Assembly (NCBI GenBank): GCA_003133025.1
Contig: PKZK01000196.1
Location: forward strand, 1 to 37,148
Direction: 5' to 3'
From: Vulcanimicrobiota bacterium
GTDB taxonomy: Bacteria; Vulcanimicrobiota; Vulcanimicrobiia; Vulcanimicrobiales; Vulcanimicrobiaceae
DNA: 37,148 nt
In this document: positions 6,328-34,559 of the stretch, in pieces
Layout of the letters: each line of letters opens with the position of its first letter
How positions within the stretch are numbered: the stretch's first letter is position 1
Notes under the pieces: model-generated
Told to the model about the DNA's origin: nothing
Databases searched by the model: none
The model's input: only the letters and a program-made list of their open reading frames with translations
Translations under genes and position numbers: made by a program

Positions 6328-6490
6328 GCGTTGCTCCTGGCTCGTGTTGTTCTAAGGTTGCCGCGGCGGGGCCGACAAATCCTCATCGGCCTTCTCGGCT
6401 ACCGGGCCAGGAACGCCATCTATCTGCAAATCGACACTATTGGACGTTCGGCTGAAGGAGGCGCGGGCGGTCGCTCAGGAAACCCGGCTC

Positions 6491-7168: not shown

Positions 7169-7191
7169 GCTCTTAGGAGCCCTGCAAGGCT

Positions 7192-11480: not shown

Positions 11481-12232
11481 TGGAATCGGAGATCGGCGGC
11501 CGGGCACCCGGCGGGCAGGCTTACGCGGGAGGCCCGCAAACGGACAGTTTCATGAACGACGGGCCTGAGCCGGGCGAGTCGAACAAGGTCTGGTATCTCA
11601 AACAGAACCGCTTATTCGAAGACGTGCCCGAGGACGAGGTCGAGCAGAACGAAGGCCTCTTCACCATGAAGACCTTCGCGCGCAAAGCCTTCATCTTCGA
11701 CGAGTCCGACCCGTCGCGAACGGTCTACATGGTCAAGCGCGGCGCCGTGCGCCTGGCCCGGCTCACCGAAGACGGCAAGGAAGTCACCGTGGCCGTGCTC
11801 GGCCGCGGCGACCTCTTCGGGGAAGAATCGATCTTCAGCGACCGGCCGCGCAGCACGTTTGCGGTGGCGCTCGACGACACGCTGATCTGCATGGCCCGCG
11901 CCGAGGACCTCTTCGCGCTGCTCGAATCGCAACCGAAAGTCGCTCTCAACGTCGCCAAGGTGATGAGCGAACGGCTCGTCGAGTTGCAATCCACGGTCGA
12001 AGATCTGGCGTACGCACGCTTGAGCGAACGTCTGATCAATCTCTTCAACCGGCTCGCGATCGAACACGGCCGGCCCGTAGAGGGCGGTGTGGAGATTACG
12101 ATCCGGCTCACGCACGCCGACCTCGCCTCGCTCGTAGGCAGCACGCGCGAGACGGTCTCGCTCGAACTGGCCCGCCTGATGCGCAGCGGCCGCTTGCGCC
12201 AGCGCGGCCACGCGGTGATCGTTCCGGCCTAG
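11480..12232 (+). CDS. Crp/Fnr family transcriptional regulator
   Basis: cNMP-type beta-roll (VKRGAVRL, GKEVTVAVLGRGDLFGE) and HTH LTHADLASLVGSTRETVS. Alternative start ATG 11552. Confidence 0.93.
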   Translation: MESEIGGRAPGGQAYAGGPQTDSFMNDGPEPGESNKVWYLKQNRLFEDVPEDEVEQNEGLFTMKTFARKAFIFDESDPSRTVYMVKRGAVRLARLTEDGKEVTVAVLGRGDLFGEESIFSDRPRSTFAVALDDTLICMARAEDLFALLESQPKVALNVAKVMSERLVELQSTVEDLAYARLSERLINLFNRLAIEHGRPVEGGVEITIRLTHADLASLVGSTRETVSLELARLMRSGRLRQRGHAVIVPA

Positions 12233-12693
12233 GAACGTTCGGCGACGAGCGCCCGGACGGTGCGCTCGAGCTCGGCGTCGTTGCCCTCGCCGACGTACGT
12301 GGCGCGCAGCTTTCCATGGCGATCGAAGACGAGTTGCGTGGGCCAGGCGTCGACGCCGTATGCCTTCCAGATGGCGAAGTCGTTGTCGATCACCACGGGC
12401 CAGGTGATGTTCTGTTCGTGCAAGGCCGCACGCACGTTGGCGCCGTCGCGTTCGTAGGGCGTCTCGGGCGCGTGAACGCCCACGATCGTGAGATCGGCCT
12501 CGGGGATCGCCGCTCGAAGCCGGCGCAGTTCCGGCGCGACGTGCTTGCAGTTGATGCAACCGAACGTGAAGACGTCGACGACGGCGACCCGGCCGGCGGT
12601 CGCCGGTGCGTGCGTGGCGTTGAGCCAGCCCGCGGTCGAGGAGATGACCGGCGCCAGCGTGGTCGCCGCGGCCAGCAATAAAGCGTGCAACAT
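12229..12693 (-). CDS. Exported TlpA/DipZ-like thioredoxin (redoxin)
   Basis: WLN, DVFTFGCINC (CxxC), VGVHAPE, WPVVIDND, AWPT, GEG; short signal peptide. Confidence 0.88.
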   Translation of the reverse strand: MLHALLLAAATTLAPVISSTAGWLNATHAPATAGRVAVVDVFTFGCINCKHVAPELRRLRAAIPEADLTIVGVHAPETPYERDGANVRAALHEQNITWPVVIDNDFAIWKAYGVDAWPTQLVFDRHGKLRATYVGEGNDAELERTVRALVAERS

Positions 12694-12744
12694 ACGGCGA
12701 TCATAAACGAATCGAGGCGGCCCCGCCCGTAAGCCGCATTACGG
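12693..12744 (-). promoter_or_regulatory. Putative class II Crp-type leaderless promoter of the redoxin gene
   Basis: CCGTAA-N6-TTACGG (12727-12744), 23 nt from the TTAC, TATGAT (12705-12700), 6 nt, ATG 12693. Same geometry as the crp promoter. Confidence 0.7.
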
Positions 12745-12791
12745 ACCGGGCGCCCTGAAGGCGGCGACGGGCTGCCAACGAAGCACTCGCC

Positions 12792-13169
12792 GTGAACAAA
12801 ATCGGCGTTTCCGTTCTGTGCCTGACGACGCTTCTGCTCGGCGCGTGCCACGGCAGCACGACATCGTCGACGCCGCAGACGAACCCGGCGTCGACGACGG
12901 TGCTCTTCGAGACGCCGACCGGCACACCGGCCGCCGGGCTCGTGGTGACGCTCTCGACGGGCATCGCCGGAGGCAACACGCCCACGGGCGTGATCACCAC
13001 CAACACAACCGACTCGTCGGGCCAGGTTACGTTCAGCGGCTTGCCCGCGTCGGACACGCTCTGCGTCAGCGCGACGTTGAGCGTGCCGCCGAGCGGCTCG
13101 CTGTTCAAGGGCGATTGTTTCTTTCCGTTCCCCTCGACGCTTACACTCGAATTTCAAGCGACGCAATAA
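12792..13169 (+). CDS. Small lipoprotein with Thr-rich, prealbumin/Cna-like beta-sandwich
   Basis: Lipobox LLGAC; TTDSSGQVTFSGLP pattern typical of carboxypeptidase-regulatory/Ig-like domains. Confidence 0.7.
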   Translation: MNKIGVSVLCLTTLLLGACHGSTTSSTPQTNPASTTVLFETPTGTPAAGLVVTLSTGIAGGNTPTGVITTNTTDSSGQVTFSGLPASDTLCVSATLSVPPSGSLFKGDCFFPFPSTLTLEFQATQ

Positions 13170-13351
13170 CGTCTCTTGAAATAATTACATACTTGAAGCA
13201 CCGCGCGTTTGCGTAGCGCTATTGTGCGATGCAAAATGCCGAGTGAGTTCGCGCACGGAAAATCACGGACCCAATCCAGCAATCTACCATCGTCGTTTCG
13301 CGGTTAGACCCTCTAAGGGCACTCTAATCTCTCCAAGGACGGAGGCGAATC

Positions 13352-17945: not shown

Positions 17946-18578
17946 CTAGTTGGACGCCCGCGGCCGGCCCACCCGGTAGACCGAGAGTATGCGGACCGCC
18001 GGATGAAGTCGCTGACCCTTCGCCGGGGCGTTCTGAATCCTCCGCACCACATCCATGCCTCCGATGACGTGCCCGAACGCGGCGTACCCATAGCGATCCG
18101 GACTGCGCTCGGCGTCGAGCACGCCGTTCGTGTTCCCGATGGAGATGAAGAACTCGGAGCCGCCGGTCCCGGGGTCTTTGTCGCGGGCGATCCCGAGCGT
18201 GCCGTCGCCAAAGTGTAGACCGCTCGTCAGCGTCGTTTCGAGCGGGATCCTTCCGAAGGGATAGGGCGCGGCGTCGGGCAGGTCGAGCCCGCCCTGGATC
18301 ACTTGGATCGGCCGGTGGGGAGCCTGATTTCCCGGCCGCACCGTACGATAGAAAGCGCTGCCGGCATACTTGTGAGTATCGACGTAGCGCAGGAAGTTGG
18401 CGACGGTCACCGGTGCTCGCGCCGCGTCGAGCCGCAGCACGATCGTGCCGAGCGTCGTCCGCATTGCGACATCGACGAAACGCGGCGCTGCCGAACCCGC
18501 CGCCGGGAAAGCGCACAGTGCGGCCAGCACCGCCGCGATTGCCGAGCGGCGCGCAGTCATCCGCAACGTACCGAGCAT
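17946..18578 (-). CDS. Exported cyclophilin-type peptidyl-prolyl cis-trans isomerase
   Basis: APVTVANFLRYV, FYR, VIQGG, SEFFI, GYAAFGHVIGGMDVV. ATG 18578 is preceded by TATTGT-N6 (leaderless geometry); alternative ATG 18560. Confidence 0.9.
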   Translation of the reverse strand: MLGTLRMTARRSAIAAVLAALCAFPAAGSAAPRFVDVAMRTTLGTIVLRLDAARAPVTVANFLRYVDTHKYAGSAFYRTVRPGNQAPHRPIQVIQGGLDLPDAAPYPFGRIPLETTLTSGLHFGDGTLGIARDKDPGTGGSEFFISIGNTNGVLDAERSPDRYGYAAFGHVIGGMDVVRRIQNAPAKGQRLHPAVRILSVYRVGRPRASN

Positions 18579-18693
18579 TGCGGCACAATATGCCGGAATT
18601 GCTCGCGACCCTGCGCTCCTCGTCGCGCCCGCTCGAGCGTTCCAGGAGATTGCACGGGCGCGCATAAGCGCTCGAACCCATGCGGATGGCGCG

Positions 18694-19605
18694 GTGAAGC
18701 ACCTCGAGCGTACGCAGACGCACGGCGTCTGGGACAACGCGATCGCGCCTGTGCTCCACGTCGCACCGGGCGACACGATCGAGGTCGAACTCGAAAACGC
18801 TTCGGGCGGTCAACTCGCGGCCGACTCCGCTGCGAGCGCGTTGTCTACCCTGGATTTTGCGCGCATCAATCCCGTGACCGGCCCCATCTTCGTCGAGGGC
18901 GCGAAGCCCGGCGACGCGCTCGTGGTCGAGATCCTGCATCTCGAGGTCGACGCCTGGGGCTGGACGGCCAACATCCCAGGCTTCGGGCTGCTGGCCGACC
19001 GCTTCACCGAACCCGCGCTGCGCATCTCGCGCATCGCCGGCGGCACGATCGAACTCTTTACGGGCATGCGTCTGCCGAGCGTCCCGATGATCGGAACGAT
19101 CGGCGTGGCGCCCGCCGAACCCGGCGCGTTCTCGGTGGTGCCGCCGACGCGGTACGGCGGCAACATGGACATCCGTCACGTCGGCGCGGGCGCGACGCTG
19201 TATCTTCCGGTGGGCGTCGACGGCGCGCTGCTCTCGCTCGGCGACGGGCACGCCGCGCAAGGCGACGGCGAGGTCTGCGGCACCGCGATCGAAACGACCG
19301 CCGTCGCGACGCTACGCATCTCGCTCGACCGCGACCGGCACCTGCCCGCGCCGATGCTGCTGACCGACGAGCGCTCCCAGCGCCGCGGCCGCGCGTTTGC
19401 GACCACCGGCGTCGGGCCCGACCTCTTCGCCGCCGCGCGCGACGCGACGAGCGCGCTGGTCGCGGAGATCGTGCGCCGCACGTCGCTCTCCGACATCGAT
19501 GCGTATCTGGTGGCGAGCGTCGCCGCCGATCTGAAAATCAGCGAAATCGTCGACGTGCCCAACTGGGTCGTCTCGCTGCACATCGACGCCGCCCTCCTCG
19601 ACTGA
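18694..19605 (+). CDS. Acetamidase/formamidase (FmdA/AmdA) family protein
   Basis: NPVTGPIFVEGAKPGD, GGNMD, GDGHAAQGDGEVCGTAIE. Confidence 0.92.
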   Translation: MKHLERTQTHGVWDNAIAPVLHVAPGDTIEVELENASGGQLAADSAASALSTLDFARINPVTGPIFVEGAKPGDALVVEILHLEVDAWGWTANIPGFGLLADRFTEPALRISRIAGGTIELFTGMRLPSVPMIGTIGVAPAEPGAFSVVPPTRYGGNMDIRHVGAGATLYLPVGVDGALLSLGDGHAAQGDGEVCGTAIETTAVATLRISLDRDRHLPAPMLLTDERSQRRGRAFATTGVGPDLFAAARDATSALVAEIVRRTSLSDIDAYLVASVAADLKISEIVDVPNWVVSLHIDAALLD

Positions 19606-19628
19606 ACGCAGCGGCCTCCGGCGGTGTC
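19603..19628 (+). promoter_or_regulatory. Candidate ECF autoregulatory promoter TGAAC-N16-GTGTC
   Basis: AAC -35 and GTC -10 motifs directly upstream of the ECF sigma gene. Confidence 0.45.
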
Positions 19629-19646
19629 ACCGTCCGTGAGAACCTA

Positions 19647-20144
19647 GTGGCACAATCTGCTTTCGACGACTTCGAGCGGCTCGTGCGGGAGAATCAGCGC
19701 GTGGTGTACCAGATCGCATTCGGCATGCTCGGCAACGCTTCGGACGCCCAAGACGTCACCCAAGACGCCTTCGTTCGAGCGTACGCCAAACGACACGAAC
19801 TGCGCGACCCCGAGCGCTTTCGCGCTTGGGTCTGCAGCATCGCCCGGCGGCTGGCCCTCAATTACCGGCGCGCCCATATCCGGGCGCGCAATCGGGAAGA
19901 GCGGGCCTCGAGCGTCCCGGCAGCCCGGGACGTGGAAGCCGAAGCCGAGGATCGCGCGTTTCTGCAAAGCGTCCGGCACGCCATCGACGCGCTGCCGCCC
20001 AAATTGCGTGAGACGCTCGTCTTGTGCGCCGTCGAGGGTTTGGAACCCGCGGACGTGGCCACGATGATCGGCATTCCACAAGGCACGGTACGCTCGCGAC
20101 TGCATCTCGCGCGGAAGGCGCTGCTCAGGGCGCTCTCCTCATGA
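19647..20144 (+). CDS. ECF RNA polymerase sigma-70 factor
   Basis: DAQDVTQDAF, FRAWVCSIARR (region 2); LPPKLRE...GIPQGTVRSRLHLAR (region 4). Confidence 0.92.
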   Translation: MAQSAFDDFERLVRENQRVVYQIAFGMLGNASDAQDVTQDAFVRAYAKRHELRDPERFRAWVCSIARRLALNYRRAHIRARNREERASSVPAARDVEAEAEDRAFLQSVRHAIDALPPKLRETLVLCAVEGLEPADVATMIGIPQGTVRSRLHLARKALLRALSS

Positions 20145-20632
20145 GCGAATGCCGCGTCCATGCACAGGAAATAAGCGACGTGGCGCTCGGCTCGGCAGCG
20201 AGCCCGCAGTTCGGCGCGCATCTCGAAACGTGCGCGGCATGCTCGCAGGCACTCGAGAGCCGGCGCGCGTTGGCGCGACGCCTCGGTGCGGCCGTCGATG
20301 CACTCGTCCGGCGGGATCCGCCGGCCGACTTGGCCGCAACGGTCGCGGCGCGCATGCGCACATCGACGCAATCGACGCGACGCTCGTTCGTACCGGCGTT
20401 GCGCGCCGGCCTCGCACTCGTCGCGGCCGTCGTCGCAACGTTCTTCATCGTCCGCGCGGTCGTGCCGCCGCCCACGCCCGCGACCTCGGTCGAAGCGCTC
20501 GACCACTGGCGTTCGCCGACGGCGTCGCTGCTCGAACCGCCGGCCGGCGTGCGCGTTCCGCCTCGCGGGTCCCGCGGGGAAACTCCACCATCCCATGCAG
20601 TCATACCGATTGGAGCACAGCATGTCTCGTAA
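20141..20632 (+). CDS. Zinc-binding (ZAS, HxxxCxxC) membrane anti-sigma factor
   Basis: HLETCAAC, single TM segment, WRSPTASLL tail; ATGA overlap with the sigma gene. Confidence 0.82.
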   Translation: MSECRVHAQEISDVALGSAASPQFGAHLETCAACSQALESRRALARRLGAAVDALVRRDPPADLAATVAARMRTSTQSTRRSFVPALRAGLALVAAVVATFFIVRAVVPPPTPATSVEALDHWRSPTASLLEPPAGVRVPPRGSRGETPPSHAVIPIGAQHVS

Positions 20633-21050
20633 CATTGCAGGCGCCGTCCTGGCCATCGTCCTGCTCGGCTCGCCCGCGCACGCGCAAACCGCGCCGGAAC
20701 CCGATCCGATCCACGACGCGCTCGTCTCACCCGACGTCGCGATGAAACACGCTCAAGAACTCGGCCTGAGTGAAGGTCAGATCAAGACGATCCAGACCGA
20801 CGCCGTCGATGCGCAACAACACTTCGTGCACCTGCAGTACCAATTGCGGGACGCGCGCGACAAACTGGTGGGCCTGCTCAAGGCGAGCAGGGTCGACGAG
20901 ACGCGTTCGCTCGAGCAGCTCGACACCATCCTCCACGTCGAGCGCGACGTCAAGCGCACCCAGTTGGGCCTGATGATCAAGATCAAGAACGTGCTGACGC
21001 CCGAGCAGCAGGCGCTCGCGCGTAAGTTCGCCGCCGACGACGGGAAGTGA
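20622..21050 (+). CDS. Spy/CpxP/ZraP-like periplasmic helical protein
   Basis: GGAG SD, signal peptide, ELGLSEGQ and VLTPEQ (LTxxQ) motifs. Confidence 0.82.
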   Translation: MSRNIAGAVLAIVLLGSPAHAQTAPEPDPIHDALVSPDVAMKHAQELGLSEGQIKTIQTDAVDAQQHFVHLQYQLRDARDKLVGLLKASRVDETRSLEQLDTILHVERDVKRTQLGLMIKIKNVLTPEQQALARKFAADDGK

Positions 21051-23786: not shown

Positions 23787-26318
23787 CTATCGAAGGGCGC
23801 CGGGCAACTCGCCGGCGGACGCGCGAAGCTCGCGGCGCGAGCGCATGTCGAGTTTTCGATACGCGGCAGTGAGGTGTTTCTCGACCGTCTTGTACGTGAT
23901 GCCGAGCTGCTTGGCGATTTCGAGGTTCGATAACCCTCCCGCGGCCATGGCCACCACCTCCCGTTCGCGCGACGACAGCGGCGAGGTCTCCGGCTGCGCG
24001 CCGAGGCGACGCGCGTGCCAGGTGGCGCCGCAGCGCTCGTACAGGGCGGCCGCCGAGGCAATCTCGCCGGCGAGTTCCCTCGCCTCCGCCTCGAGGAGGG
24101 GATAGCGCAGCCGGTGGAATCCTTCGGCGGCAGCGCGCGCATGCTGAGCGGCCTCGGCGTCACGGCCGGCGCGGCGTTGTTCGAACNNATGCAGCAACGC
24201 TTCGGCGTCGCGCACGCGGCCGCGACGGACCATGAGTTCGGCGAACCCGGCTCCGGCTTCGATTTCGGGAGCCGGAGTAATCGCAGCTTCGCACGCATCG
24301 AACCAGGTCGCAGCCAGCGCATCGTCGCCGGTGTAGGCGGCGACGAGCGTACCGGCCGCGGATGCGAAGATCAGGTTGACGCGATTGTCGGTCGTCGCCG
24401 GAACGGCATCGAGAGCGGCGCGAGCGGCGCGCAGATCGCCTGCGGCGACGTAGCAGAGCGCCGCCGTCGCCTGCGTGCACTCCTCGGCGTGCCGGCCGCG
24501 CACTTCACGCGAGAGCCGCAGTCCCGCTTCGATCTGCGCTCGCGCCTCGTCGTGACACCCGAGTCCCGAAAAGAACTTCGCCCCGTTGTAGTGCACGCCG
24601 ATCACGGCCCCCGTGCTGAGTTCTCGCGCCGCGGCGAGCCACGATGCGTGCGCTGCATGCAAGGCGCGGACATCGCCGCTCAGCACCGCCACGCTGCTCC
24701 TGACGTTGTAGTAGCGCACCGCGATGTCGGTCGCTTGCATCGAAGCGGCGTCCACCTGCGCCAACTCTTCCAGTGCGACGGCCGGACGGCGCAGCGCGGA
24801 ATTGATCCAAGCGATGGCCAGATGCAATCGGCTGCGCGCCAGCCGTTCCGCCGGATCGATGCGGGCGAGCGCCTCGCGCAGCGGCGCGGTCGTATCGGTG
24901 AGGCTCATCGTGTACGCAGTCATCGCGGCGCGTGCCCGGCACGTCGCTTCGCGATCGGTCGCGCCGGCTTGCCGGAAGAGTTCGGCCGCGGCGACGAATG
25001 CCGCCATCGCTTCCTCGTTTGCCGCCAAGATGAGATGCCGGTCGGCCACCTTTTGCATAATCTGTCCGCGCCTGAGCGCGTCGAGTCCAGGCTGCGCCGC
25101 GGCGCGCTCGTAAAACGCAATTGCATCCTCGTGTGCGTACACGCGCGCCGCTGCGTCGCCGGCGCTCTCGTTGGCGCGGGCGGCCTGTGCGGCGTCTCCG
25201 GCCAGGGTCCAATGGTAGGCCAGCGCTTCGAGCGCGCGGCTCTCGGGCGGCGCCTTTTCGAGAATCTCCGCAATCGTGCGATGCTTGGCACGCGCTTCGG
25301 CGCTGAGAAAGCCGTCGTAGATCGCATCGCGCGTGAGGACGTGACGAAAGCGAAATTGCTCCGAGTCGAGTTCGTCGATCAGCTGCAGGTCGCGCGCGCG
25401 GCGCAGCGCCGGAAGCACGGCCTGCGCGGTCGTGCCGAGCGTCGCCACCAACAGGTCCAGGGAAAAAGAACGGCCGATGACCGCCGCCTGTTCGACGACG
25501 CGGCGTTCGTCGTCGCTGAGGGGTTCGAGCCGGTCGAGCAGCGTTGCGCGCAGCGTCGTGGATACGTCGGGCGTCAGTGCCGCTCGCGACGCGAGCTTGC
25601 GCGTGCGGGCGTGCTTCTCGACCGCGCTCTTCAGCAATTCCTCGACGAAGAACGGGTTGCCCTCACTGAGCCGGGCAACGGCGCGGCGCGTGTAGTCGGG
25701 TAATTCGATCTCGTCGAGCGCGCCGTCGATGAACGCGCGCAGTTCGGTGCCGTGCAGCGGCGGCACTTCGATCCGCGCCGCTCGAGCGACGCGCGCGATC
25801 TTGGCCACGAGTGCGGCGGCCCGACGGTCGATCTCGACCTCCGCCGCCCGCAGCGACGCGATCGTCAGAATGCGCGCGTTTTGCGTGCGCTCGCCGAAGT
25901 ATGCCAAAAACTCGAGGGTCGCGGCATCGGCCCAGTGGAGATCCTCGACGACGACCACGAGCGCCCGACGCTCCGCAATGTCGCGAAAGCGCGCGACGAT
26001 CGCCTCGGCCTGCTCGTGTTTCGACGCTGCGGCGCCGAGTGCGAAGGGACGGTCGTCGACGCGAGCGAGCGCCTCGAGAATCGGACCGTACGGCCGGCTT
26101 CCGAACTCCGGGCAAGCGCCCGTCGCAAAACGCCACCGCGTGTAGGCAAGCGACGCCGAGAATTCCCCGATCAGCCGCGACTTGCCGATGCCGGCATCGC
26201 CTGCGACCAGGACGAACGCGCCGTGCGACGCCGCGGCTTCGATGCGGCGCTCGTGCAGGTACGCCAGTTCCTCACGGCGCCCGATGAACGGCCTGCACAG
26301 TACGGGTCGGAGGATCAC
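23787..26318 (-). CDS. Large ATP-binding LuxR-family (LAL/STAND) transcriptional regulator; spans gap
   Basis: FIGRREEL, GDAGIGKS (Walker A), VVEDLHWAD (Walker B), GNPFFVEEL, C-terminal LSSREREV...GLSNLEIA...TVEKHL; nn at 24187-24188. Confidence 0.9.
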   Translation of the reverse strand: MILRPVLCRPFIGRREELAYLHERRIEAAASHGAFVLVAGDAGIGKSRLIGEFSASLAYTRWRFATGACPEFGSRPYGPILEALARVDDRPFALGAAASKHEQAEAIVARFRDIAERRALVVVVEDLHWADAATLEFLAYFGERTQNARILTIASLRAAEVEIDRRAAALVAKIARVARAARIEVPPLHGTELRAFIDGALDEIELPDYTRRAVARLSEGNPFFVEELLKSAVEKHARTRKLASRAALTPDVSTTLRATLLDRLEPLSDDERRVVEQAAVIGRSFSLDLLVATLGTTAQAVLPALRRARDLQLIDELDSEQFRFRHVLTRDAIYDGFLSAEARAKHRTIAEILEKAPPESRALEALAYHWTLAGDAAQAARANESAGDAAARVYAHEDAIAFYERAAAQPGLDALRRGQIMQKVADRHLILAANEEAMAAFVAAAELFRQAGATDREATCRARAAMTAYTMSLTDTTAPLREALARIDPAERLARSRLHLAIAWINSALRRPAVALEELAQVDAASMQATDIAVRYYNVRSSVAVLSGDVRALHAAHASWLAAARELSTGAVIGVHYNGAKFFSGLGCHDEARAQIEAGLRLSREVRGRHAEECTQATAALCYVAAGDLRAARAALDAVPATTDNRVNLIFASAAGTLVAAYTGDDALAATWFDACEAAITPAPEIEAGAGFAELMVRRGRVRDAEALLHXFEQRRAGRDAEAAQHARAAAEGFHRLRYPLLEAEARELAGEIASAAALYERCGATWHARRLGAQPETSPLSSREREVVAMAAGGLSNLEIAKQLGITYKTVEKHLTAAYRKLDMRSRRELRASAGELPGALR

Positions 26319-26394
26319 GTCATATCGATATTTCCGCGCGCGAAGCCGCGCTTCCGGCTGCCGGTCGCGCGCGGGCCGCATCCGTTTTCCATCG

Positions 26395-26422
26395 TCACGA
26401 TACCCATATCACGATACCCATA
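26395..26422 (+). repeat. Perfect 14-bp tandem duplication TCACGATACCCATA x2
   Basis: 26395-26408 and 26409-26422 are identical. Confidence 0.9.
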
Positions 26423-26623: not shown

Positions 26624-27532
26624 TTGAGACACCTACCAAAGTATGTTGCCTTGGCGGCGTTCGTTGCACTTGCCGGATGTAATAACGGCACCGCCGGGAC
26701 GCCCGTCCCGGTCAGCCCGCAATCGGTATCGCAATCCGGCGCCGTCGGCCCGCTGAAAAAGTCAGGCGGCTATACGACCAAATGGGTCCAACTCGTCATT
26801 TTCGAAAACGAGTCGTACGACGACATCATCGGCAATTCGTCGGCGCCGTACATCAACGGCTTGGCCAAATCGTGGGCGTTGATGACGCAGAGTTTCGCCA
26901 TAACGCATCCGAGCGAACCCAACTACTTGGCGCTGTTCAGCGGCTCGACCCAAGGCGTGACCTCCGACGAATGCCCGGTCTCGTTCAGCGCGAAAAACCT
27001 CGGCAGCGAACTGATCGCCAAGAAGATCTCGTTCACCGGTTTCGCCGAAAGCATGCCCAGCAACGGCTTCACGGGATGCCAGGCGGATCCCGATAAATTG
27101 CCCAGCGGCTACCTGTACATGCGCAAGCACGTGCCGTGGACCGACTTCACCAACGTTCCCGCAGCCGACAGCCAGGTGTACTCCAGCCCGCTCAGCCAGC
27201 CGCCTTCCCGATTCACCTGGATCACGCCCAATATGTGCGACGACATGCACGATTGCTCGATCGCCGACGGCGACACGTGGGCCTCGAAAAACCTCCCGGG
27301 CCTGATCGCGTGGGACACCGCAAACGACGGCCTCTTGATCCTGACGTTCGACGAAAACGATGGAAGCGCGGGAAATCAGATTGCGACGATCCTCATCGGC
27401 AACGTGAATCCGGGGCAGTACAGCCAAACGATCAATCACTACAGCGTGCTGCGTACGATCGAAGACATCTTCAAGCTCAAACCGGTCGGCAATTCGGCGA
27501 CGGCCACCGCGATCCAAGGGGTCGTGAAATAG
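26624..27532 (+). CDS. Lipoprotein phosphoesterase (AcpA/SapM/phospholipase C superfamily)
   Basis: AGGAG SD with TTG start, lipobox LAGC, FENESYD, THPSEPNY, DMHD, TFDE, NHYSVLRTIED. Confidence 0.88.
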   Translation: MRHLPKYVALAAFVALAGCNNGTAGTPVPVSPQSVSQSGAVGPLKKSGGYTTKWVQLVIFENESYDDIIGNSSAPYINGLAKSWALMTQSFAITHPSEPNYLALFSGSTQGVTSDECPVSFSAKNLGSELIAKKISFTGFAESMPSNGFTGCQADPDKLPSGYLYMRKHVPWTDFTNVPAADSQVYSSPLSQPPSRFTWITPNMCDDMHDCSIADGDTWASKNLPGLIAWDTANDGLLILTFDENDGSAGNQIATILIGNVNPGQYSQTINHYSVLRTIEDIFKLKPVGNSATATAIQGVVK

Positions 27533-27557
27533 CGCCGTTACCCTGAACGTCTCCAGG

Positions 27558-30500
27558 GTGGGCGGTCCGGCAACGCCGGCCGCCCACCACCTCGGCAGGG
27601 CGACACTCCTCGCCCTCTGTTTTCTGGCTTCGTTCGTTGCCGGGTGTGCCGGGAGCCATCACACGGTCGCCTACGACGGCAACGCTTTGGTGGTCGACGG
27701 ACAACGTACGGCGCTCGCCGCAACGCAGTTCCATTATTGGCGGCTGCCCAGTCCGGCGCTCTGGCTTTCTTCACTCGAGCGAATAAGAGCCGAAGGCTAC
27801 AACGCGGTGGCCCTGGATTTTTATTGGGGCTATCACTCCGCTCATCGCGGAGCGTTCGATTTCACCGGCGTGCGAGACGTCGACGCACTCTTGCAGGCCG
27901 CCGCGAAGGCGCACGTATACGTCATCGCCCGGCCCGGACCGTTTATCGACGGGGGAGCCGAGGCCGGCGGCGTTCCCGACTGGATGCTCGCGCGTAGCGG
28001 CCGGCCCGAAACGATGGCCGCACGCTACGCGCGCGAGTCGCGACGCTGGCTGCAACAGATCGATGCGATCATCGCACGCCATCAACTGACGGACGGCAGC
28101 GGGACGGTCGTCCTCTACCAAATAAGCGACCGGAATACGCCCGGACTTTCGGCTGCCCGTCAACGCGAAGCACGCGCCGACGGGGTCGCCGTGCCGTTCG
28201 CCGGCAGCGCACTCCCCAGCGCCGAAGACGGCACGCACTGGGGATGGACGGGCGATCCGCTGCACGCCTACGGGCCGCGAAACTCCGGCACGCAGGAGCC
28301 GGCGCCGCTCGCAGAAGCGGCTGCATCGCTGCCGGCGATCGTGCGGTGGCGCCGGCAAGACGACGACGCCGAGTCGCGCCGCGTCTTCGACGATCAAGCC
28401 TGGCCGCCGCTCATCGCCGGCCTGGCGATCGATCCCGACGAACCGACGACGGGAGCGCGCTACAAGCACGTTCCGCGATCGCCGCGGCTGGACTTTGCGA
28501 GCGTCAACGACTACGGGTTCGATCACGGCGCCGTTTGGTACCGCGGTCACTTCAGAGCAAACGGCACGGAACGCGCGCTGCGGCTACGCGGCTCGGCGGG
28601 GCGCAGGGGAGCGTGCTCGATCTGGCTCAACGGCCGCTTTCTCACAAGCGCGTCGGCGGACGACGCGGGCGAGATTTCCGTCACGGTGACGTTCGGCGCT
28701 GCGGCCTTACGCCGAGGCGCCGATAACGTGTTCTCGGTGCTCTTCGAGAACATGGGGCACAACGAGGATTTCGATCGCGACGTGAATCGCGCGCAGCCAC
28801 GGGGGATGCTCGGAGCGGTGCTAGCGGGATCGACGCAGCCGATTCAGTGGCACGTCCTCGGAAACGGCGTGTACAATACCGATCCCGTTCGCGGACCGCT
28901 CAACTCGGGCGGCCTCGCCGGAGAAATAGCCGGTTGGCAGCAACCGGCATTCCCCGACGCCGCGTGGCCCGCGACGACGTTACCGGCGCACGCGGGCAGG
29001 CCCGGCGTGACCTGGTATCGCGCGCGCGCTACCGTAAAACCGCCCGCCGATGCGGCGACATCCGACGCAGTGCGCATTCGCGACGCCGAGCCGGGTTCGT
29101 ACAGAGCGTTCGTCTACGTGAACGGATGGCTCGTGGGCCAATACGTCAGCGAAGGCGGCTCGCAAAGCGTGTTCCCGATTCCGAGCGGCGTTCTCTCCCA
29201 CGACGGCGACGCGACCATCGCCATCGCCGCCTGGAGCCTCGATGGACGCGGTGGGCTCGGCACCGTTTCATTCGAGACCGTGCGCGCGCCGGACGACCCA
29301 CACGTCGCGCTGCCCGACATTCCGGAAGTTCGGTCGAAGGACGGCGTTGCCCGGCTCAGTCTCGACGTCGCAAGCGGGAACAGCGGCGACCGGCCGCACT
29401 TCGTTTTCCACGGCCAGGATGCGACGCCCACGCTTCGCGTCAGGCCGGGCGATACGATCGCGATCGCGCTGCACAACGGCTTGCATCCGTCGAACGACAC
29501 GGCGAACGCCGTCAACCTCCACTTCCACGGGCTCGACGTCGCGCCGACCCCGCCGGGCGACGAGGTGCTCGAGACGCTCGCCCGGCCGGGGCAAACACTG
29601 CATTACCGGGTGCACGTCCCCGCCAATCAGCCGCCGGGTACGTATTGGTATCACTCCCATTCGCACGGCGAAACCTATTGGCAAGTCACGAGCGGCATGG
29701 GCGGAGCGATCGTCGTCGAGGGTCTGCAAGATCTCGTGCCCGATCTCGCCACGATGCGCGAGCGCACGATCTTCGTCCGCAACGTGCAAGACGCTCCCGG
29801 CATCATGCAGATTCCCTGGTACGCGCGGCCGCAGACGCGCGGCCGTGGGAGCGTGGATAGCGACGAAGCTCTCGGCGCGAACGAACCGTGCGCCGCCGAG
29901 TTCGGCACGCACGTCACCGTCAACGGAGCCTTCCAACCGCTCATTTCGATCGCGCCGGGCGAGAAGCAATTCTTCCGCCTGGTGAACGCCTCAGCGAGTC
30001 GCGTCCTCGACCTCGCGATCGATGACGAACCGATCGGGCTCGTTGCGGTCGACGGCTATCCGGTGGGGGACAGTCCCGGCAACGCGACGGTACTCTGGAC
30101 CGATCACATCCTCATCCCGCCTGCCGGCCGCGCGGAGTTCATCGCAACCGGCCCATCCCGCCCGGCGATGTTGCGCTCACGCTGCTACGACAGCGGCCCG
30201 GCGGGCGACCGGGACCCCGAGACCGTCCTCGCAATCCTTCAGCCAAGCGCTTCGGCGCGGCAAGTCGAAACGCCGAGCCCGAGCGCAACGGCTCGACCGG
30301 CGGACTCGGCTACGATCTCTCGTGCGGCGCCCGTACGTAAACGCATCATTCGGCTCAGCGAGGATGCGCGCGGCTTCTACATCAACGGAAAGGCTTTCCG
30401 CATGAGCGGCATGCCGAGCATGAGCGGCATGAACGCTGCACCGTCGCTCGTCGCACGCGCAGGCACGCTCGAGGAGTGGACCGTGCTCAACGAGACCGAC

Positions 30501-30755
30501 GAGGTGCACGATTTCCACATCCACCAGGTGCACTTCCAAGTCGAGTCGCTCGACGGCGCGCCGCTCCTCCCGCAGGTGTGGCGCGACACCGTGCTCGTGC
30601 CCGCGCAGACCCGTGCGGCAGGGCGGCGCTCCCCGGGCGTTGCGAAGATCCTCGTCGACTTCAGAAACCCGGGAATCCGCGGTACGTTCGTATTTCACTG
30701 CCACATGCTCGACCACGAAGACGGCGGCATGATGGCCACCATCAAGGTTATCTAA
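27558..30755 (+). CDS. Fusion lipoprotein: degenerate GH35 beta-galactosidase domain + two BetaGal jelly-roll domains + three-domain multicopper oxidase
   Basis: GH35 part FHYWRLPSP..W, FYWGYH, RPGPFI; jelly-roll parts WYRGHF, WLNG, ENMGH, YRAFVYVNGW; MCO copper motifs HFHG, YWYHSH, HDFHIH, HCHMLDHEDGGM. One uninterrupted ORF with no nn. Confidence 0.85.
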   Translation: MGGPATPAAHHLGRATLLALCFLASFVAGCAGSHHTVAYDGNALVVDGQRTALAATQFHYWRLPSPALWLSSLERIRAEGYNAVALDFYWGYHSAHRGAFDFTGVRDVDALLQAAAKAHVYVIARPGPFIDGGAEAGGVPDWMLARSGRPETMAARYARESRRWLQQIDAIIARHQLTDGSGTVVLYQISDRNTPGLSAARQREARADGVAVPFAGSALPSAEDGTHWGWTGDPLHAYGPRNSGTQEPAPLAEAAASLPAIVRWRRQDDDAESRRVFDDQAWPPLIAGLAIDPDEPTTGARYKHVPRSPRLDFASVNDYGFDHGAVWYRGHFRANGTERALRLRGSAGRRGACSIWLNGRFLTSASADDAGEISVTVTFGAAALRRGADNVFSVLFENMGHNEDFDRDVNRAQPRGMLGAVLAGSTQPIQWHVLGNGVYNTDPVRGPLNSGGLAGEIAGWQQPAFPDAAWPATTLPAHAGRPGVTWYRARATVKPPADAATSDAVRIRDAEPGSYRAFVYVNGWLVGQYVSEGGSQSVFPIPSGVLSHDGDATIAIAAWSLDGRGGLGTVSFETVRAPDDPHVALPDIPEVRSKDGVARLSLDVASGNSGDRPHFVFHGQDATPTLRVRPGDTIAIALHNGLHPSNDTANAVNLHFHGLDVAPTPPGDEVLETLARPGQTLHYRVHVPANQPPGTYWYHSHSHGETYWQVTSGMGGAIVVEGLQDLVPDLATMRERTIFVRNVQDAPGIMQIPWYARPQTRGRGSVDSDEALGANEPCAAEFGTHVTVNGAFQPLISIAPGEKQFFRLVNASASRVLDLAIDDEPIGLVAVDGYPVGDSPGNATVLWTDHILIPPAGRAEFIATGPSRPAMLRSRCYDSGPAGDRDPETVLAILQPSASARQVETPSPSATARPADSATISRAAPVRKRIIRLSEDARGFYINGKAFRMSGMPSMSGMNAAPSLVARAGTLEEWTVLNETDEVHDFHIHQVHFQVESLDGAPLLPQVWRDTVLVPAQTRAAGRRSPGVAKILVDFRNPGIRGTFVFHCHMLDHEDGGMMATIKVI

Positions 30756-30762
30756 ATCNNCT

Positions 30763-31707
30763 TCGCCGCACTTTTCCTCGAATGCGAGCATTTGGTTTCA
30801 TCCCATGCCCGCCGCTTCGCTTTGGTCGAGCGCGCCGCCGGGAGATCTCGGCTCGACGGATTACGCTGCGCTCTTCGCTCCGAATAACCAATGGCCGCAG
30901 GTCGCCGCGCACACCGGCACCTTCGGTTTGTACGCGGGGTGGGTGTTGGCGGCCGGGGATCCCGTGCTCGCCAGTACCGTGGCGTTCCTCAACGCACACG
31001 GCATGGGCATCGAACTCGAAGCGCCCGCGCTGCAGGCGCTCGCGACCTGCGGCTCGGGCGTGGAGGGCTACGTACCCGTGCACCAGACCGTCAAGGCCGT
31101 GACCCTCGCTTATCTGAGCCGCCTTCAGGCGCTGGGAGCGAAGGTCACGTACGTGAAGGTCGACGAGCCATATTTCTTCGGAAGCGTCGTCGCCGATCCG
31201 CGCGCGTGTCACTTCCCCGTCACCACGGTCGCCAGCGAAGTCAGCACCTACGTGCAGATCGTGCACGAGGTGTACCCGAACGCCGTCGTGGGCGATGTCG
31301 AACCCGTGATCACCGGTCCGTACGTCCCCGACGTCGTGACCGCGCTGACGCAGTGGCACCAAGCATACGCCGCCGCCAACGGTGCACCGTTCCCGTTTTA
31401 CATCGCCGACATCGATTTCAGCAATATCGGCTGGCCGCCGCTCGTGAAGAGCTTAGAAAGCGCGACGCATTCAGCGGGGATGCGCTTCGGCATCATCTAC
31501 ATCGGGGATCCGCAAGATACGTCCGACGCAGAGTGGACGGGCAAAGTTGTGTCGCGTTTCGAAACCTATCAGGGCTCGATCGGCGGTTCACCCGATATCG
31601 TGCTCTTCCAATCGTGGGAGTATCACCCGAAGCATTGCCTGCCCGAAACCTCGCCGCTCACCTTCACCGGCGCGATCTCGCGATACATCGCGGAGACATC
31701 GCCCTAA
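30763..31707 (+). CDS. Hypothetical glycoside-hydrolase-like TIM-barrel protein; N-terminus lost in gap
   Basis: Frame is open back to the nn (SPHFSSNASIWFHPMP...). VKVDEPYFFG, GDVEP and FQSW motifs. Fold assignment is inference. Confidence 0.6.
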   Translation, partial: SPHFSSNASIWFHPMPAASLWSSAPPGDLGSTDYAALFAPNNQWPQVAAHTGTFGLYAGWVLAAGDPVLASTVAFLNAHGMGIELEAPALQALATCGSGVEGYVPVHQTVKAVTLAYLSRLQALGAKVTYVKVDEPYFFGSVVADPRACHFPVTTVASEVSTYVQIVHEVYPNAVVGDVEPVITGPYVPDVVTALTQWHQAYAAANGAPFPFYIADIDFSNIGWPPLVKSLESATHSAGMRFGIIYIGDPQDTSDAEWTGKVVSRFETYQGSIGGSPDIVLFQSWEYHPKHCLPETSPLTFTGAISRYIAETSP

Positions 31708-31793
31708 TCCACGCGCGAGAGGGCGAGATGGGGCGCCGGGTAGACGCCGGCGAGTAGGCGAGGGCGCGCGTCTCCGAAGGCGAAGCCTCGAGC

Positions 31794-34559
31794 ATGGCGA
31801 GCGAGGCTCCGGCGGGCGTCCCTGGCCCGACGGCACCGACCGGAAACGTTACGTTTCTGTTTTCGGACATCGAGGGGAGCACGCAACGGTGGGAGCGCCA
31901 TGGAGAAGCCATGGCCGCCGCGCTGGCGCGCCACGATGTCGTCATGCGCCGGGCGATTACGGCACACGACGGCTTCGTCTTCAAAACGATCGGCGACGCA
32001 TTTTGCGCGGCCTTTGCCCGCCCGGGCGACGCGCTGGCCGCGGCAATCGATGCGCAGCGCGCGCTGAGGGCCGAGGATTTCTCGGCCGTCGAAGGCCTGT
32101 TCGCGCGCATGGGCCTGCACGCGGGCACGAGCGACGAACGCGACGGCGACTACTTCGGCGCCGCGGTCAATCGTGTCGCGCGGCTGATGTCGATCGGACA
32201 CGGCGGCCAGATACTGATTTCCGATGCGGTGCGCGAAGCGCTGCACCGCGACGCGTGTGCGGACGTGCGCCTCATCGACCTGGGCGAGCGGCGGCTCAAG
32301 GATCTCCTACAACCCGAGCGCGTTTGGCAAGTCGGCGTCGCCGAACTACCGGACCACTTTCCCCCGTTGAATTCGCTGGACGCGCGACCGAACAACCTGC
32401 CTATCCAGGTGACGTCGTTCATCGGGCGAGAGAGCGACGTGAACGATGTCAAAACGCTCTTGCACGCACATCGCGTCGTAAGTGTGCTGGGTTCGGGTGG
32501 CGTGGGCAAGACGCGCGTAGCACAACAGACGGGTGCCGATTTGATCGATCGCTTCGAGCACGGGGTGTGGTTTGCCGACCTCGCGCCGATTCGCGATCCC
32601 GCATTGGTTGCCACCGTCGTCGCTCAGGCATTGGGCGTCAACGCGCCCGCAGGCAGGCGGCTCGACGAGGCCATCCCGCAGCTCGTCAAATCGAAGCAAC
32701 TGCTGCTGATCCTCGATAACTGTGAACAGGTCTTGGACGCGGCCGCAGCTTTGGCCGATGCGATTCATCGGACTGCTCCAGGCGTGCGCATTCTGGCCAC
32801 CTCGCGCCAGGCGCTGGGGATTGAGGGCGAATACGCTCACCGCTTGCCATCTCTGGCCATGCCCGAGGCCGGACTTCGAAATCTCAGCGCACATGAAGCG
32901 CTGGAATTCGGTGCGATCGCGGTCTTCGTCGACCGCGCGTCGCTCGCCGGCGCCCGCTTCGAGCTTACCGACGACAACGCGCCGATCGTCGCCGACATCT
33001 GCCGGCGGCTCGACGGCATTCCGCTCGCGATCGAACTCGCCGCGGCGCGGGTCAACGTGCTGAGCGTACCCAACCTCGCGAAGCGGCTCAATGAGCGGTT
33101 CCGAATTCTCACCGGCGGCAGCCGCACGGCGCTTCCGCGCCAGAAGACGCTGAGCGCGCTGATCGACTGGAGCTACGACCTGCTCACGTTAGACGAGCAG
33201 AGACTCTTCAGTCGCTTGGGCGTTTTCGCCGGGAGCTTTTCGCTCGAGGCGGCCGAGACCGTGTGCGGAGACGAGGAGATCGATGCGGACCATGTGTTCG
33301 ATCTCGTCTCGTCGCTAACCGAGAAGTCACTGCTTCACGGCGACACGAGCGGGTCCGAGGAGCGCTACCTGCTGCTCGAATCCACCCGCGCGTACGCGTT
33401 GACGAAGCTCGCGGCGTTCGGCGAGCGCGAGCGCTTCACTCGTCGCCATGCCGCCTATTTCAACGATCTGGCCCTTGCCGCCGCCGCCCGCCATCAACCG
33501 GGCATCGCGTGGAACGAGAGCGTCGAGCGCGAGCTCGACAACTATCGCGCAACATTGGAGTGGGCGCTCACGGAGCAGAACCACGCGGAGCTAGGTGGCA
33601 CCATTACCGGCGCGCTCGCATGGTTTTGGCTCGAAGGCGGTTTTGAGGCGGAGGGGCGCTATTGGATCGGCCTCGGCCTCGAACGCATCAGCGAAGCGGA
33701 GCACCCCGCAATCGTGGCGACGTTGTGGCTCGCAGCCTCGGCGCTCTGGCACGGCCAGCACGCCTGTGATGCTGCCGCCCATGCCGTCAGACTCTATGAA
33801 GCCGTCGGGAACGAACGCCGGACCGATCTCGCCCGGCAATTCTTGGTGTTCGCGCTCATTAACGTTGGCCGCATCGAGGAAGCGCGCGACGTCAATGCGC
33901 GCGTGCTCGACCGATTTCGGGCACTTGGCGACTCAGACGGCATCGGCCGGTCGCTGAACAGGGAGGCCCTGTGCCTGCGCAAGCTCGGGAATCTTCAAGG
34001 CGCACGCGAACTCTACACCGAGGCCCTCGCCATCTTTCGCTCGCTCCAGAACCAGACGTGGTTGCCCATGACTTTGGATGACCTCGCCTTGTTGGAGTTC
34101 GAAGCCGGTAACGCCGAACTCGCCTTGCGCCTTTCCGGTGAGGCGTTAGAAATAAAGCTGCGCGGCAAACACGCGGTGGCGCTTGCCGCCAACTACACCA
34201 CCAGCGCAATCTATCGAATCGCACTGGGTGAGTACGAGGCCGCACGAGAGGCCGCATTGCAGGGTTTGCGCTGGTCCCAGCGGGCTCAAGATCGGATCCG
34301 CACGGCAGACGCCATTCAGCAGCTTGCGGCCTGCGCCGCAATCGCGGGCGACTTCACACGCGCGATTCGTCTCGTGGGCTACGTGGCCGCCCAATACGAC
34401 GCCACCGGACAGGAGCAAGATGCGACGGAGCGGGCGGGCTATCTGCACTTTACTTCCGCTGCCCGCGAGCGTCTGGGCGAGGCCGAGGTCGCGAGGCTGG
34501 CTGCAGAAGGCGCGCTCTGGACCGAAGATCAGGCCGTCGCGAACGCGTCGATCGTTTAA
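31794..34559 (+). CDS. Class III adenylate/guanylate cyclase - NB-ARC/STAND ATPase - TPR protein
   Basis: FLFSDIEGST, FKTIGDAF, DYFGAAVNRVARL, GSGGVGKT, LILDNCE, LDGIPLAIELAAAR, WSYDLL, TPR-like tail; no HTH. Confidence 0.93.
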   Translation: MASEAPAGVPGPTAPTGNVTFLFSDIEGSTQRWERHGEAMAAALARHDVVMRRAITAHDGFVFKTIGDAFCAAFARPGDALAAAIDAQRALRAEDFSAVEGLFARMGLHAGTSDERDGDYFGAAVNRVARLMSIGHGGQILISDAVREALHRDACADVRLIDLGERRLKDLLQPERVWQVGVAELPDHFPPLNSLDARPNNLPIQVTSFIGRESDVNDVKTLLHAHRVVSVLGSGGVGKTRVAQQTGADLIDRFEHGVWFADLAPIRDPALVATVVAQALGVNAPAGRRLDEAIPQLVKSKQLLLILDNCEQVLDAAAALADAIHRTAPGVRILATSRQALGIEGEYAHRLPSLAMPEAGLRNLSAHEALEFGAIAVFVDRASLAGARFELTDDNAPIVADICRRLDGIPLAIELAAARVNVLSVPNLAKRLNERFRILTGGSRTALPRQKTLSALIDWSYDLLTLDEQRLFSRLGVFAGSFSLEAAETVCGDEEIDADHVFDLVSSLTEKSLLHGDTSGSEERYLLLESTRAYALTKLAAFGERERFTRRHAAYFNDLALAAAARHQPGIAWNESVERELDNYRATLEWALTEQNHAELGGTITGALAWFWLEGGFEAEGRYWIGLGLERISEAEHPAIVATLWLAASALWHGQHACDAAAHAVRLYEAVGNERRTDLARQFLVFALINVGRIEEARDVNARVLDRFRALGDSDGIGRSLNREALCLRKLGNLQGARELYTEALAIFRSLQNQTWLPMTLDDLALLEFEAGNAELALRLSGEALEIKLRGKHAVALAANYTTSAIYRIALGEYEAAREAALQGLRWSQRAQDRIRTADAIQQLAACAAIAGDFTRAIRLVGYVAAQYDATGQEQDATERAGYLHFTSAARERLGEAEVARLAAEGALWTEDQAVANASIV

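Follow-up and report, generated by a model that had tools for sequence, protein, structure and literature searches.

The gene at 27558..30755 of a 37,148-nucleotide stretch of DNA (the window) encodes a truncated and catalytically dead member of glycoside hydrolase family 35 (GH35) that is fused to a laccase-like multicopper oxidase with intact motifs. The fusion is conserved and under purifying selection, it is found in peat, and it is invariably paired with a gene for a phosphatase just upstream. We propose that its GH35-derived half is an adaptor, a pseudo-glycosidase that docks the upstream phosphatase to the oxidase. Given our structure modeling and sequence statistics, we lean towards this explanation.

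If so, the N-terminal half would be a pseudo-enzyme that consists of strands 1-5 of the GH35 barrel and two C-terminal jelly rolls and that has lost all of the glycosidase machinery. It would act as a protein-protein adaptor for an AcpA-like phosphatase lipoprotein, which the fusion would keep beside an intact three-domain laccase-like oxidase. The resulting two-enzyme complex, with both members lipid-anchored, would sit on the outer side of the membrane in peat-dwelling Eremiobacterota, and in most of the lineages the adaptor would tie phosphatase to oxidase. The parts are:

26624..27532, + strand: the upstream partner, an AcpA-like phosphoesterase (PF04185) lipoprotein of 302 amino acids with the lipobox LAGC
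27558..30755, + strand: the whole fusion gene, a predicted lipoprotein; 1065 codons without gaps, GTG start, stop included
27558..27647, + strand: signal peptide with the lipobox VAGC (amino acids 27-30, Cys30), whose Cys is kept in homologs
27666..28202, + strand: GH35 half-barrel, strands 1-5 (amino acids 37-215), from Pfam, alignments, and the structure model
28203..28328, + strand: poorly conserved linker (amino acids 216-257) with a GTHWGW remnant, the site of both deletions
28329..29282, + strand: two GH35 jelly rolls (amino acids 258-575), which are domains 4-5 of a five-domain GH35, with a conserved FDDQAWPP lead-in
29310..30752, + strand: three-domain multicopper oxidase (amino acids 585-1065) with the motifs HFHG, WYHSH, HDFHIH, and HCHMLDHEDGGM

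A preliminary description of the window had reported a single open reading frame of 1065 amino acids with a lipobox, a GH35-like N-terminus, two jelly rolls, and a multicopper oxidase. All of this was borne out, and the motif coordinates were exact: TQFHY is at amino acids 56-60, GPFIDGG at 127-133, YQISDR at 187-192 (nucleotides 28116-28133), GTHWGW at 225-230, HFHG at 655-658, WYHSH at 697-701, HDFHIH at 984-989, and HCHMLDHEDGGM at 1047-1058. The Cys of the VAGC lipobox is kept in 15 loci, and by its signal peptide and this invariant Cys the fusion is predicted to be a bacterial lipoprotein, as had been described.

The GH35 module is recognizable but incomplete. Glyco_hydro_35 (PF01301) matches amino acids 44-191 with only positions 2-148 of its 319-position profile (E = 4.8e-37), BetaGal_ABD2 (PF13364) matches in two stretches (E = 4.9e-29), and a match to BetaGal_gal-bd is below threshold. 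When compared to the beta-galactosidase of A. niger (5ifp; E = 9e-64), amino acids 37-198 of the fusion correspond to residues 46-206 and amino acids 258-567 to residues 669-973, and about 460 residues of the intact enzyme have shrunk to about 60. By these matches to PF01301, PF13364, and 5ifp, the module is a GH35 by descent. In an alignment with nine intact GH35 proteins, including actinobacterial ones, the barrel of the fusion family runs through the fifth strand (ARADGVAVPF). The next roughly 95 residues, with the EFQGG nucleophile motif, are gone; then the GGTxWGW loop survives as DGTHWGW; and downstream of it the end of the barrel and domains 2-3 are absent. The preliminary description had noticed the apparent loss of the second half of the barrel and of domains 2-3, with GTHWGW as a remnant; the alignment refines this to two internal deletions instead of one. 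The EFQGG stretch is absent from all seven aligned fusions and present in eight of the nine intact proteins, and the ninth (P0058) has EFGGG, which keeps the Glu.

The catalytic residues that fall within the remaining part have been replaced. The PENE of 5ifp aligns with ISDR, which puts R192 in place of the acid/base Glu; fusion homologs have GER, QDD, or DDR at this motif, and intact relatives have ENE. GPYINAE has become GPFIDGG, in which Gly replaces the Glu by which NAE binds sugar, and at aligned position 87 Tyr has given way to Asp. With R192 at the acid/base position, Gly for the NAE Glu, and no nucleophile segment, the GH35 part cannot work as a glycosidase, in agreement with the earlier view that it is apparently catalytically dead. 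A complete (beta/alpha)8 barrel, the acid/base Glu of ENE, and the nucleophile Glu at strand 7 are all missing.

Our structure model of the N-terminal half (predicted local distance difference test or pLDDT, 71.9; predicted template modeling score or pTM, 0.73) shows two jelly rolls and a barrel built from four to five beta-alpha units. The deletion linker and the loops of the old active-site face are modeled with low confidence (pLDDT <50). The template modeling (TM) score of this model to fungal five-domain GH35 enzymes, normalized to the query, is 0.64-0.68, so the remaining GH35 domains are predicted to keep their mutual arrangement. A model of the whole protein was weaker (pLDDT 66.6, pTM 0.51), so that the placement of the oxidase is not reliable and domain packing is uncertain; Foldseek with this model gave only oxidases among the best 50 matches.

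The same bacterial family also has intact genes for five-domain GH35 proteins (L093, 937 amino acids, profile positions 2-315; L097, profile positions 1-318). There are also other partial matches. In the window's own genome, a 904-amino-acid reading frame on contig C124 (L110:295-3009) combines an amino-acid permease (amino acids 12-413) with a GH35-like stretch that covers positions 2-105 of the 319-position profile. Short GH35-like matches (about amino acids 10-115 of the query, 35-41% identity, in frames of 500-1600 amino acids) are found in well over 100 genomes of the phylum, which may thus hold another widespread family of GH35 barrels that are partial or have diverged strongly.

The oxidase half appears to be complete. 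The 12 copper-ligand positions, which are ten His, one Cys, and the axial Met (H655, H657, H699, H701, H984, H987, H989, H1047, C1048, H1049, H1053, and M1058), are invariant in all 39 aligned sequences, and Cu-oxidase_3, Cu-oxidase, and Cu-oxidase_2 each match above their cut-offs. Its best solved relative is the laccase of Thermus thermophilus HB27 (2xu9, 6wcn; E = 1e-43, 28-29% identity, TM 0.78-0.79). By sequence and predicted fold, then, it is a three-domain multicopper oxidase of the laccase-like kind with predicted activity; the preliminary description was right to call it intact, with four copper motifs. It has three cupredoxin domains. We considered whether it might be an equivalog of the cuprous oxidase CueO and rejected this, as it scores 116 bits against the NCBIfam model NF008205, where the cut-off is 525, and the family has no Met-rich region. 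The window's copy does have a 10-residue Met-rich insert (amino acids 949-958), but this is not in the family consensus and so is not a candidate for a CueO-like copper site. Other oxidases with extra domains turned up in our protein search (P0051, P0069).

The fusion is found well beyond this contig. Our search of 5.8 billion proteins found 34 further proteins of 900-1067 amino acids with the same domain set and 52-61% identity; one of the 34 is cut at 800 amino acids and is 70% identical. Where the source names an organism, it is 'Candidatus Cybelea sp.', and the annotations are beta-galactosidase, suppressor of ftsI, or FtsP/CotA-like oxidase. The truncated N-terminal half is present in 19 of 401 sampled Eremiobacterota genomes, all of them from one family and three genera (the window's own; g4, with 15 of 80 sampled genomes; and g19, with 3 of 12). 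So homologs with the same fusion, whose existence the preliminary description had left to be checked, occur both in these genomes and in protein databases. At the DNA level, 14 runs from 11 studies contain a near-identical copy of the fusion stretch (at least 0.76 of sampled words); 12 of these runs are labeled as peat metagenome, and two are under a coded organism name. Contigs from two of the runs, from different studies, span the junctions at 28250-28330 and 29280-29320 (X1 at 28212-30755; X3 at 27418-28725 and 28713-29924), and the fusion is not a chimeric assembly.

Both halves of the protein are constrained. Across 24 full-length proteins, pairwise identity averages 0.63 in the half-barrel, 0.61-0.63 in the jelly rolls, 0.69-0.75 in the oxidase domains, and 0.35-0.50 in the linkers. 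We estimated the ratio of nonsynonymous to synonymous substitution rates (dN/dS) by the Nei-Gojobori method for 13 coding sequences; of the 78 pairs, we used the 74 whose dS was 0.05-1.5. The median dN/dS is 0.19 in the half-barrel, 0.23 and 0.26 in the jelly rolls, 0.21, 0.20, and 0.17 in the oxidase domains, and 0.60 and 0.57 in two linkers (0.60 in the deletion linker). The dS values are high and the pairs lack independence, but all of the regions compared belong to a single gene. Since the GH35 half has values comparable to those of the oxidase domains, with far higher values in the linkers, its neutral decay is excluded, and the sequences indicate a conserved and selected scaffold.

The N-terminal halves of the fusions form one clade with support of 1.0 (FastTree, 22 rows, with 6 near-duplicate fusion rows left out). 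The same tree did not resolve whether the GH35 part came from an Eremiobacterota or an actinobacterial source. Two loci (L010 and L011) have a GH35-like gene 4-6 kb from a stand-alone oxidase, but these genes match only profile positions 2-108 and are not adjacent to the oxidase, so we rejected them as the origin of the fusion. Another apparent fusion (L022) is really two tandem oxidase genes, which give a long match.

The partner gene ends 25 bases before the fusion on the same strand. Its product matches PF04185 with 109.6 bits (cut-off 23; E = 2.5e-31), and the motifs ENESYD, HPSEPNY, TPNMCDDMHD, and FDENDG are intact. E61, N62, S97, D243, and E244 are invariant in 14 sequences; we take these to be metal ligands and the nucleophile, by analogy to AcpA and phospholipase C. 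So the partner is a PF04185 phosphoesterase whose presumed catalytic motifs are intact and whose active-site residues are predicted. Neither a sequence search against solved structures nor NCBIfam gave any match for it. Both the phosphatase and the fusion carry lipoboxes.

The pairing is without exception among the fusion genes that we examined. In each of the 16 loci examined at the DNA level, the gene immediately upstream of the fusion encodes a phosphatase homolog (58-82% identity). By coordinates, it is directly upstream and on the same strand in all 19 of the fusion-bearing sampled genomes, and also in L002 and in a metagenome locus (L113). No other flanking gene is common to the window and the loci L001, L002, and L003. 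Among 80 oxidase loci, a phosphoesterase lies within 8 kb only at three fusion loci, at L005, and, weakly, at L025.

Several of these loci have unusual features. L005 (7857-13672), from another Eremiobacterota chromosome, has a stand-alone oxidase of the same subfamily at 2-3.5 kb from two PF04185 genes (443 and 289 amino acids), which hints that the association of oxidase and phosphatase may predate the fusion. In g19 (L003:6022-7947 and 11664-13214; L094:1181-3147 and 6378-7826), the phosphatase is duplicated in tandem upstream of the fusion; the two copies are 75% and 58-59% identical to the window's copy, and both retain the interface residues described below. The g19 loci also have a second, stand-alone multicopper oxidase (42-45% identity) that is convergent and just downstream of the fusion.

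In seven loci of the sister genus, the phosphatase and fusion genes overlap (GTAA), which is typical of translational coupling. In these loci (L001:7983-8050; L002, L083, L084, L085, L086, and L087), there is no ATG, GTG, or TTG ahead of the signal peptide of the fusion. In all seven, the frame opens with GTA, overlapping the phosphatase's TAA stop, and the signal peptide is conserved, with mostly synonymous differences. L003 and L094 likewise have no canonical start ahead of the signal peptide. Because of this, gene callers place the start of these fusions past the lipobox or some 70-120 residues too far downstream. The arrangement in the sister genus suggests that translational coupling lets ribosomes re-initiate at a non-canonical codon.

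We predicted the structure of a complex of amino acids 34-580 of the fusion with amino acids 20-302 of the phosphatase, using our own alignments. The score was 0.72 (runs of 0.64, 0.72, and 0.72), and the best of three controls scored 0.00. This passes a mark that is reached by 116 of 157 solved complexes and by 2 of 215 mismatched pairs, counts that hold only roughly here because of the use of our own alignments. At least 46% of contacts are shared between runs, and the pLDDT of the phosphatase is at least 86. We know of no solved complex between members of the GH35 and PF04185 families. The predicted contacts on the fusion are at amino acids 95-99 and 142-148, which are loops after strands 2 and 3 on the old active-site face, and, for the most part, in the jelly-roll segment (278-286, in the FDDQAWPP lead-in; 314-321; 434-439; and 457-459). 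On the phosphatase, they are at amino acids 64-73, 88-91, 246-252, 267-274, and 290-295, which flank ENESYD and FDENDG and exclude the presumed catalytic residues.

The predicted interface also shows specific conservation. For the phosphatase, we compared 13 orthologs that are linked to the fusion to 7 that are unlinked, across positions 55-302 (248 positions); the unlinked orthologs were outside the model's input. Six of the 248 positions are invariant in the 13 linked copies and kept in at most 3 of the 7 unlinked ones, and five of these six (D66, Q89, F91, S267, and T269) are among the 29 predicted contact positions (p = 9e-5, Fisher's exact test). Off the interface, identity to the window's copy is equal in the linked and unlinked groups (0.75 and 0.76). 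T269, F91, and Q89 are in the contact pairs with the lowest predicted error. All five of the interface residues recur in the phosphatase of L113. The copy in genome G221 is truncated by its contig, and it retains S267 and T269, the two that can be seen. For the fusion, we looked for aligned positions with a residue that is almost invariant across 15 fusions but seldom present in 12 intact GH35 proteins: 6 of 25 contact positions are of this kind, as compared to 32 of 492 others (p = 0.007). For instance, L434 and I457 are invariant hydrophobic residues in the fusions, where the intact proteins mostly have Q and R. From the structure model and these statistics, we think that the phosphatase probably does bind the N-terminal half of the fusion.

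The GH35-derived module also exists by itself. Searching with the N-terminal half, we found five proteins of 448-548 amino acids that end a few residues after the second jelly roll and have no oxidase. They share 45-47% identity with the window's copy and 68-86% with each other, and they have the same two deletions. Genomic context is known for one of the five: in G221 (L111:644-2242; Pfam GH35 positions 2-147 of 319, and ABD2), the gene is directly downstream of the phosphatase gene. This arrangement implies that the truncated GH35 unit has a role of its own beside the phosphatase and that the oxidase is an added or removable module. Since oxidase-free versions exist, tethering of the oxidase cannot be the sole role of the GH35 module. 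Across the genus, the module was found in 4 of 15 genomes, and the stand-alone form only in G221. A scan of metagenomes for loci with the stand-alone adaptor gave 280 pattern matches and one confirmed locus (L113), which turned out to be a fusion. The convergent neighbor of the stand-alone module in G221 is a GMC-family FAD oxidoreductase (L111:2239-4038).

Several points weigh against our proposal. Docking of the phosphatase rests on a structure model and sequence statistics, and the complex prediction covered the N-terminal half and the phosphatase. The functional link between the phosphatase and the oxidase is purely inferred. Twelve sampled genomes keep an ortholog-level phosphatase (65-76% identity) in varied contexts and with no adjoining fusion, so the phosphatase does not need the fusion. 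The fusion loci descend from one ancestor (they are monophyletic with support of 1.0), so the pairing could partly be inherited synteny. Because the linked and unlinked phosphatases are partly separate clades, the interface substitutions amount to few independent events. The contact residues F277, D279, W282, Y319, and G320 are also invariant in intact GH35 proteins, so these are structural and not adaptations. Finally, the jelly rolls could bind glycans as well as dock the phosphatase.

A role in glycan binding is the first alternative to consider. The preliminary description suggested that a glycosidase scaffold had been repurposed to target or tether the oxidase to glycans. The repurposing holds up, as the module is dead, conserved, and selected; the targeting does not, as nothing that we found points to it and the evidence points instead to the upstream phosphoesterase as a protein partner. 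More precisely, the dead GH35 module could be a carbohydrate-binding or tethering module that positions the oxidase at galactan, pectin, or the glycans of moss walls, with the phosphatase as a mere neighbor. The jelly rolls do belong to BetaGal_ABD2 (and, below threshold, to BetaGal_gal-bd), the module is under purifying selection, its predicted fold retains the GH35 domain arrangement (TM 0.64-0.68), and the habitat is peat and moss. However, none of the mappable residues of the -1 sugar site is retained (the NAE Glu is Gly, the Asn-Glu of ENE is Asp-Arg, and the Tyr of aligned position 87 is Asp), half of the sugar pocket is deleted, and the family-specific changes are from polar to hydrophobic, which is ill-suited to a sugar site. 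Also, the module persists without the oxidase, and the complex prediction and interface statistics favor the phosphatase. We consider this explanation to be unlikely.

We find it slightly less plausible still that the N-terminal half is an inert spacer or folding aid with no specific partner, which would make the pairing inherited synteny and the predicted complex a false positive. This would fit with the single origin of the fusion, with the phosphatase being on its own in 12 genomes, and with the 2 of 215 mismatched pairs that also reach the mark, given that our own alignments are outside of the calibration. But a spacer would be expected to have a higher dN/dS than the 0.19-0.26 seen across 540 residues, when the real linkers have 0.57-0.60; the interface-specific conservation is seen in sequences that the model did not see; and the pairing with the phosphatase is kept while all of the other neighbors differ.

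That the truncated barrel retains or has gained catalysis, either as a residual glycosidase or as a new activity at the old active-site face, seems very improbable: R192 or an Asp at the old acid/base position, and also D131, are conserved within subgroups, but the nucleophile segment is gone, only five of eight strands are left, and the loops at that face have pLDDT <50. An assembly chimera or a pseudogene can practically be dismissed, as nothing speaks for it beyond single frame changes that split a few homologous loci (L002, L003, G163, G302, and G386), and 19 genomes share the architecture, contigs from two studies bridge the junctions, the reading frame is open, and selection is purifying.

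If the adaptor does hold the phosphatase beside the oxidase, what might this be for? We tentatively suggest phosphate scavenging in acid, phenol-rich peat, with the oxidase removing or transforming phenolics at the phosphatase. We favor the removal of phenolics because peat is rich in phenols and poor in phosphorus. Alternatively, the oxidase could act on phenols that are freed from aryl phosphates, or on Fe(II), Mn(II), or Cu(I). More speculatively, and rather doubtfully as a whole, the pseudo-glycosidase could be the organizer of a surface machine for "phosphorus mining." The old active-site face and the jelly rolls would clamp the acid phosphatase near its catalytic motifs, with the phenol oxidase adjoining. 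Phenolic inhibitors would be destroyed at the phosphatase, or the phenols of aryl phosphates would be oxidized there, which would be an "enzyme latch" within a single complex. The adaptor and the phosphatase would be the core of this machine, and the oxidase an addition.

Pseudo-enzymes that act as scaffolds are a known principle. If our proposal is correct, the fusion would give a clear example from nature of a glycoside hydrolase barrel that was cut to five strands and is still under strong selection, which would bear on how half-barrels fold and on how pseudo-enzymes gain scaffold roles. It would also be a physical link between a phosphatase and a phenol oxidase in abundant uncultured bacteria of peat. 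In peatlands, the way in which phenol oxidases, phenolics, and hydrolases act on one another is debated as a control on carbon storage. And it would correct the annotation of proteins that are named "beta-galactosidase," "suppressor of ftsI," or "FtsP/CotA-like" and are mis-started by gene callers. Our literature search found no description of a GH35-oxidase architecture or of a phosphatase-oxidase pair on a dead glycosidase; going by titles and the openings of abstracts, the papers on fusions of multicopper oxidases and GH35 are about fungal and plant secretomes, proteomes, and genomes, and what is in print on multicopper oxidases of Eremiobacterota, as far as our search showed, does not concern this protein. 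As presented in excerpts of one paper, the enzyme latch theory connects phenol oxidases with phenolics and with hydrolases in peat, and metagenome-assembled genomes of Eremiobacteriota are rich in polyphenol metabolism (PMC11153144).

We also noticed some features around the two genes. The GTG start of the fusion (27558) is at the junction of two GC-rich hairpins (27525-27625; minimum free energy -49.7 kcal/mol, z = -4.5, with 0 of 200 shuffles as stable), and within the codons for the signal peptide there is a terminator-like hairpin with a T run (27597-27616). The hairpins between the phosphatase and the fusion may be a translational or transcriptional throttle. Upstream of the phosphatase gene, between it and a divergent gene for an AAA_16/LuxR-type regulator (23787-26381, minus strand), a 14-base unit is perfectly duplicated in tandem (26395-26422), and this may be a site for the regulator. 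Further upstream (18303-21050) are an extracytoplasmic function (ECF) sigma factor with a long N-terminal extension (613 amino acids) and then a reading frame with a Metal_resist domain. Downstream (31794-34559) is an adenylate/guanylate cyclase-NB-ARC-TPR protein of 921 amino acids. Neither the sigma factor nor the cyclase is conserved beside the fusion in other genomes. Two reading frames just downstream of the fusion (30805-31707 and 30891-31757) have no family match in Pfam or NCBIfam and are not conserved beside it either.

In RNA libraries from one peat and one moss sample, contigs cover the phosphatase gene with 0-2 differences. In these libraries (X15 and X17), nearly all of the fusion gene has no contig cover, except for 29747-29940 (X17). 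Since DNA can be present in RNA libraries, and since contigs neither measure levels nor show absence, we draw no conclusion about expression or an operon.

How does this system compare to known ones? For the docking principle, the closest analogy may be the lysosomal complex of GLB1, a GH35 beta-galactosidase, with protective protein cathepsin A (7kdv), in which a GH35 fold holds an unrelated hydrolase. 7kdv ranked 22nd among the fold matches of our model of the N-terminal half. The likeness would be in principle only: in 7kdv the GH35 is active and its partner is a serine carboxypeptidase, and we do not claim homology of the partner or of the interface. Five-domain GH35 enzymes (5ifp from A. 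niger, 1tg7 from Penicillium, and actinobacterial proteins) are homologous to the fusion in strands 1-5 of the barrel and in domains 4-5, and the N-terminal half shares 37-44% identity with actinobacterial GH35 proteins and 41-47% with the intact Eremiobacterota proteins L093 and L097. Unlike these, the fusion is without the acid/base Glu, the nucleophile, strands 6-7, and domains 2-3, and it has an oxidase attached.

The partner resembles the AcpA / phospholipase C family (PF04185) in that it matches above the cut-off and its metal-ligand and nucleophile motifs are invariant, but it is only 300 amino acids long and is predicted to be lipid-anchored. As for the oxidase half, the laccase of Thermus also has three cupredoxin domains and all of the copper motifs. 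It has a Met-rich hairpin over the T1 site, where the fusion family has an invariant SGxxGDRDP stretch and a linker that varies and contains no Met, and it lacks the 550-residue N-terminal module and the lipid anchor. CueO shares the fold and the copper motifs with the fusion. The fusion family has no Met-rich helix region or lid, and we saw no twin-arginine motif in the window's fusion.

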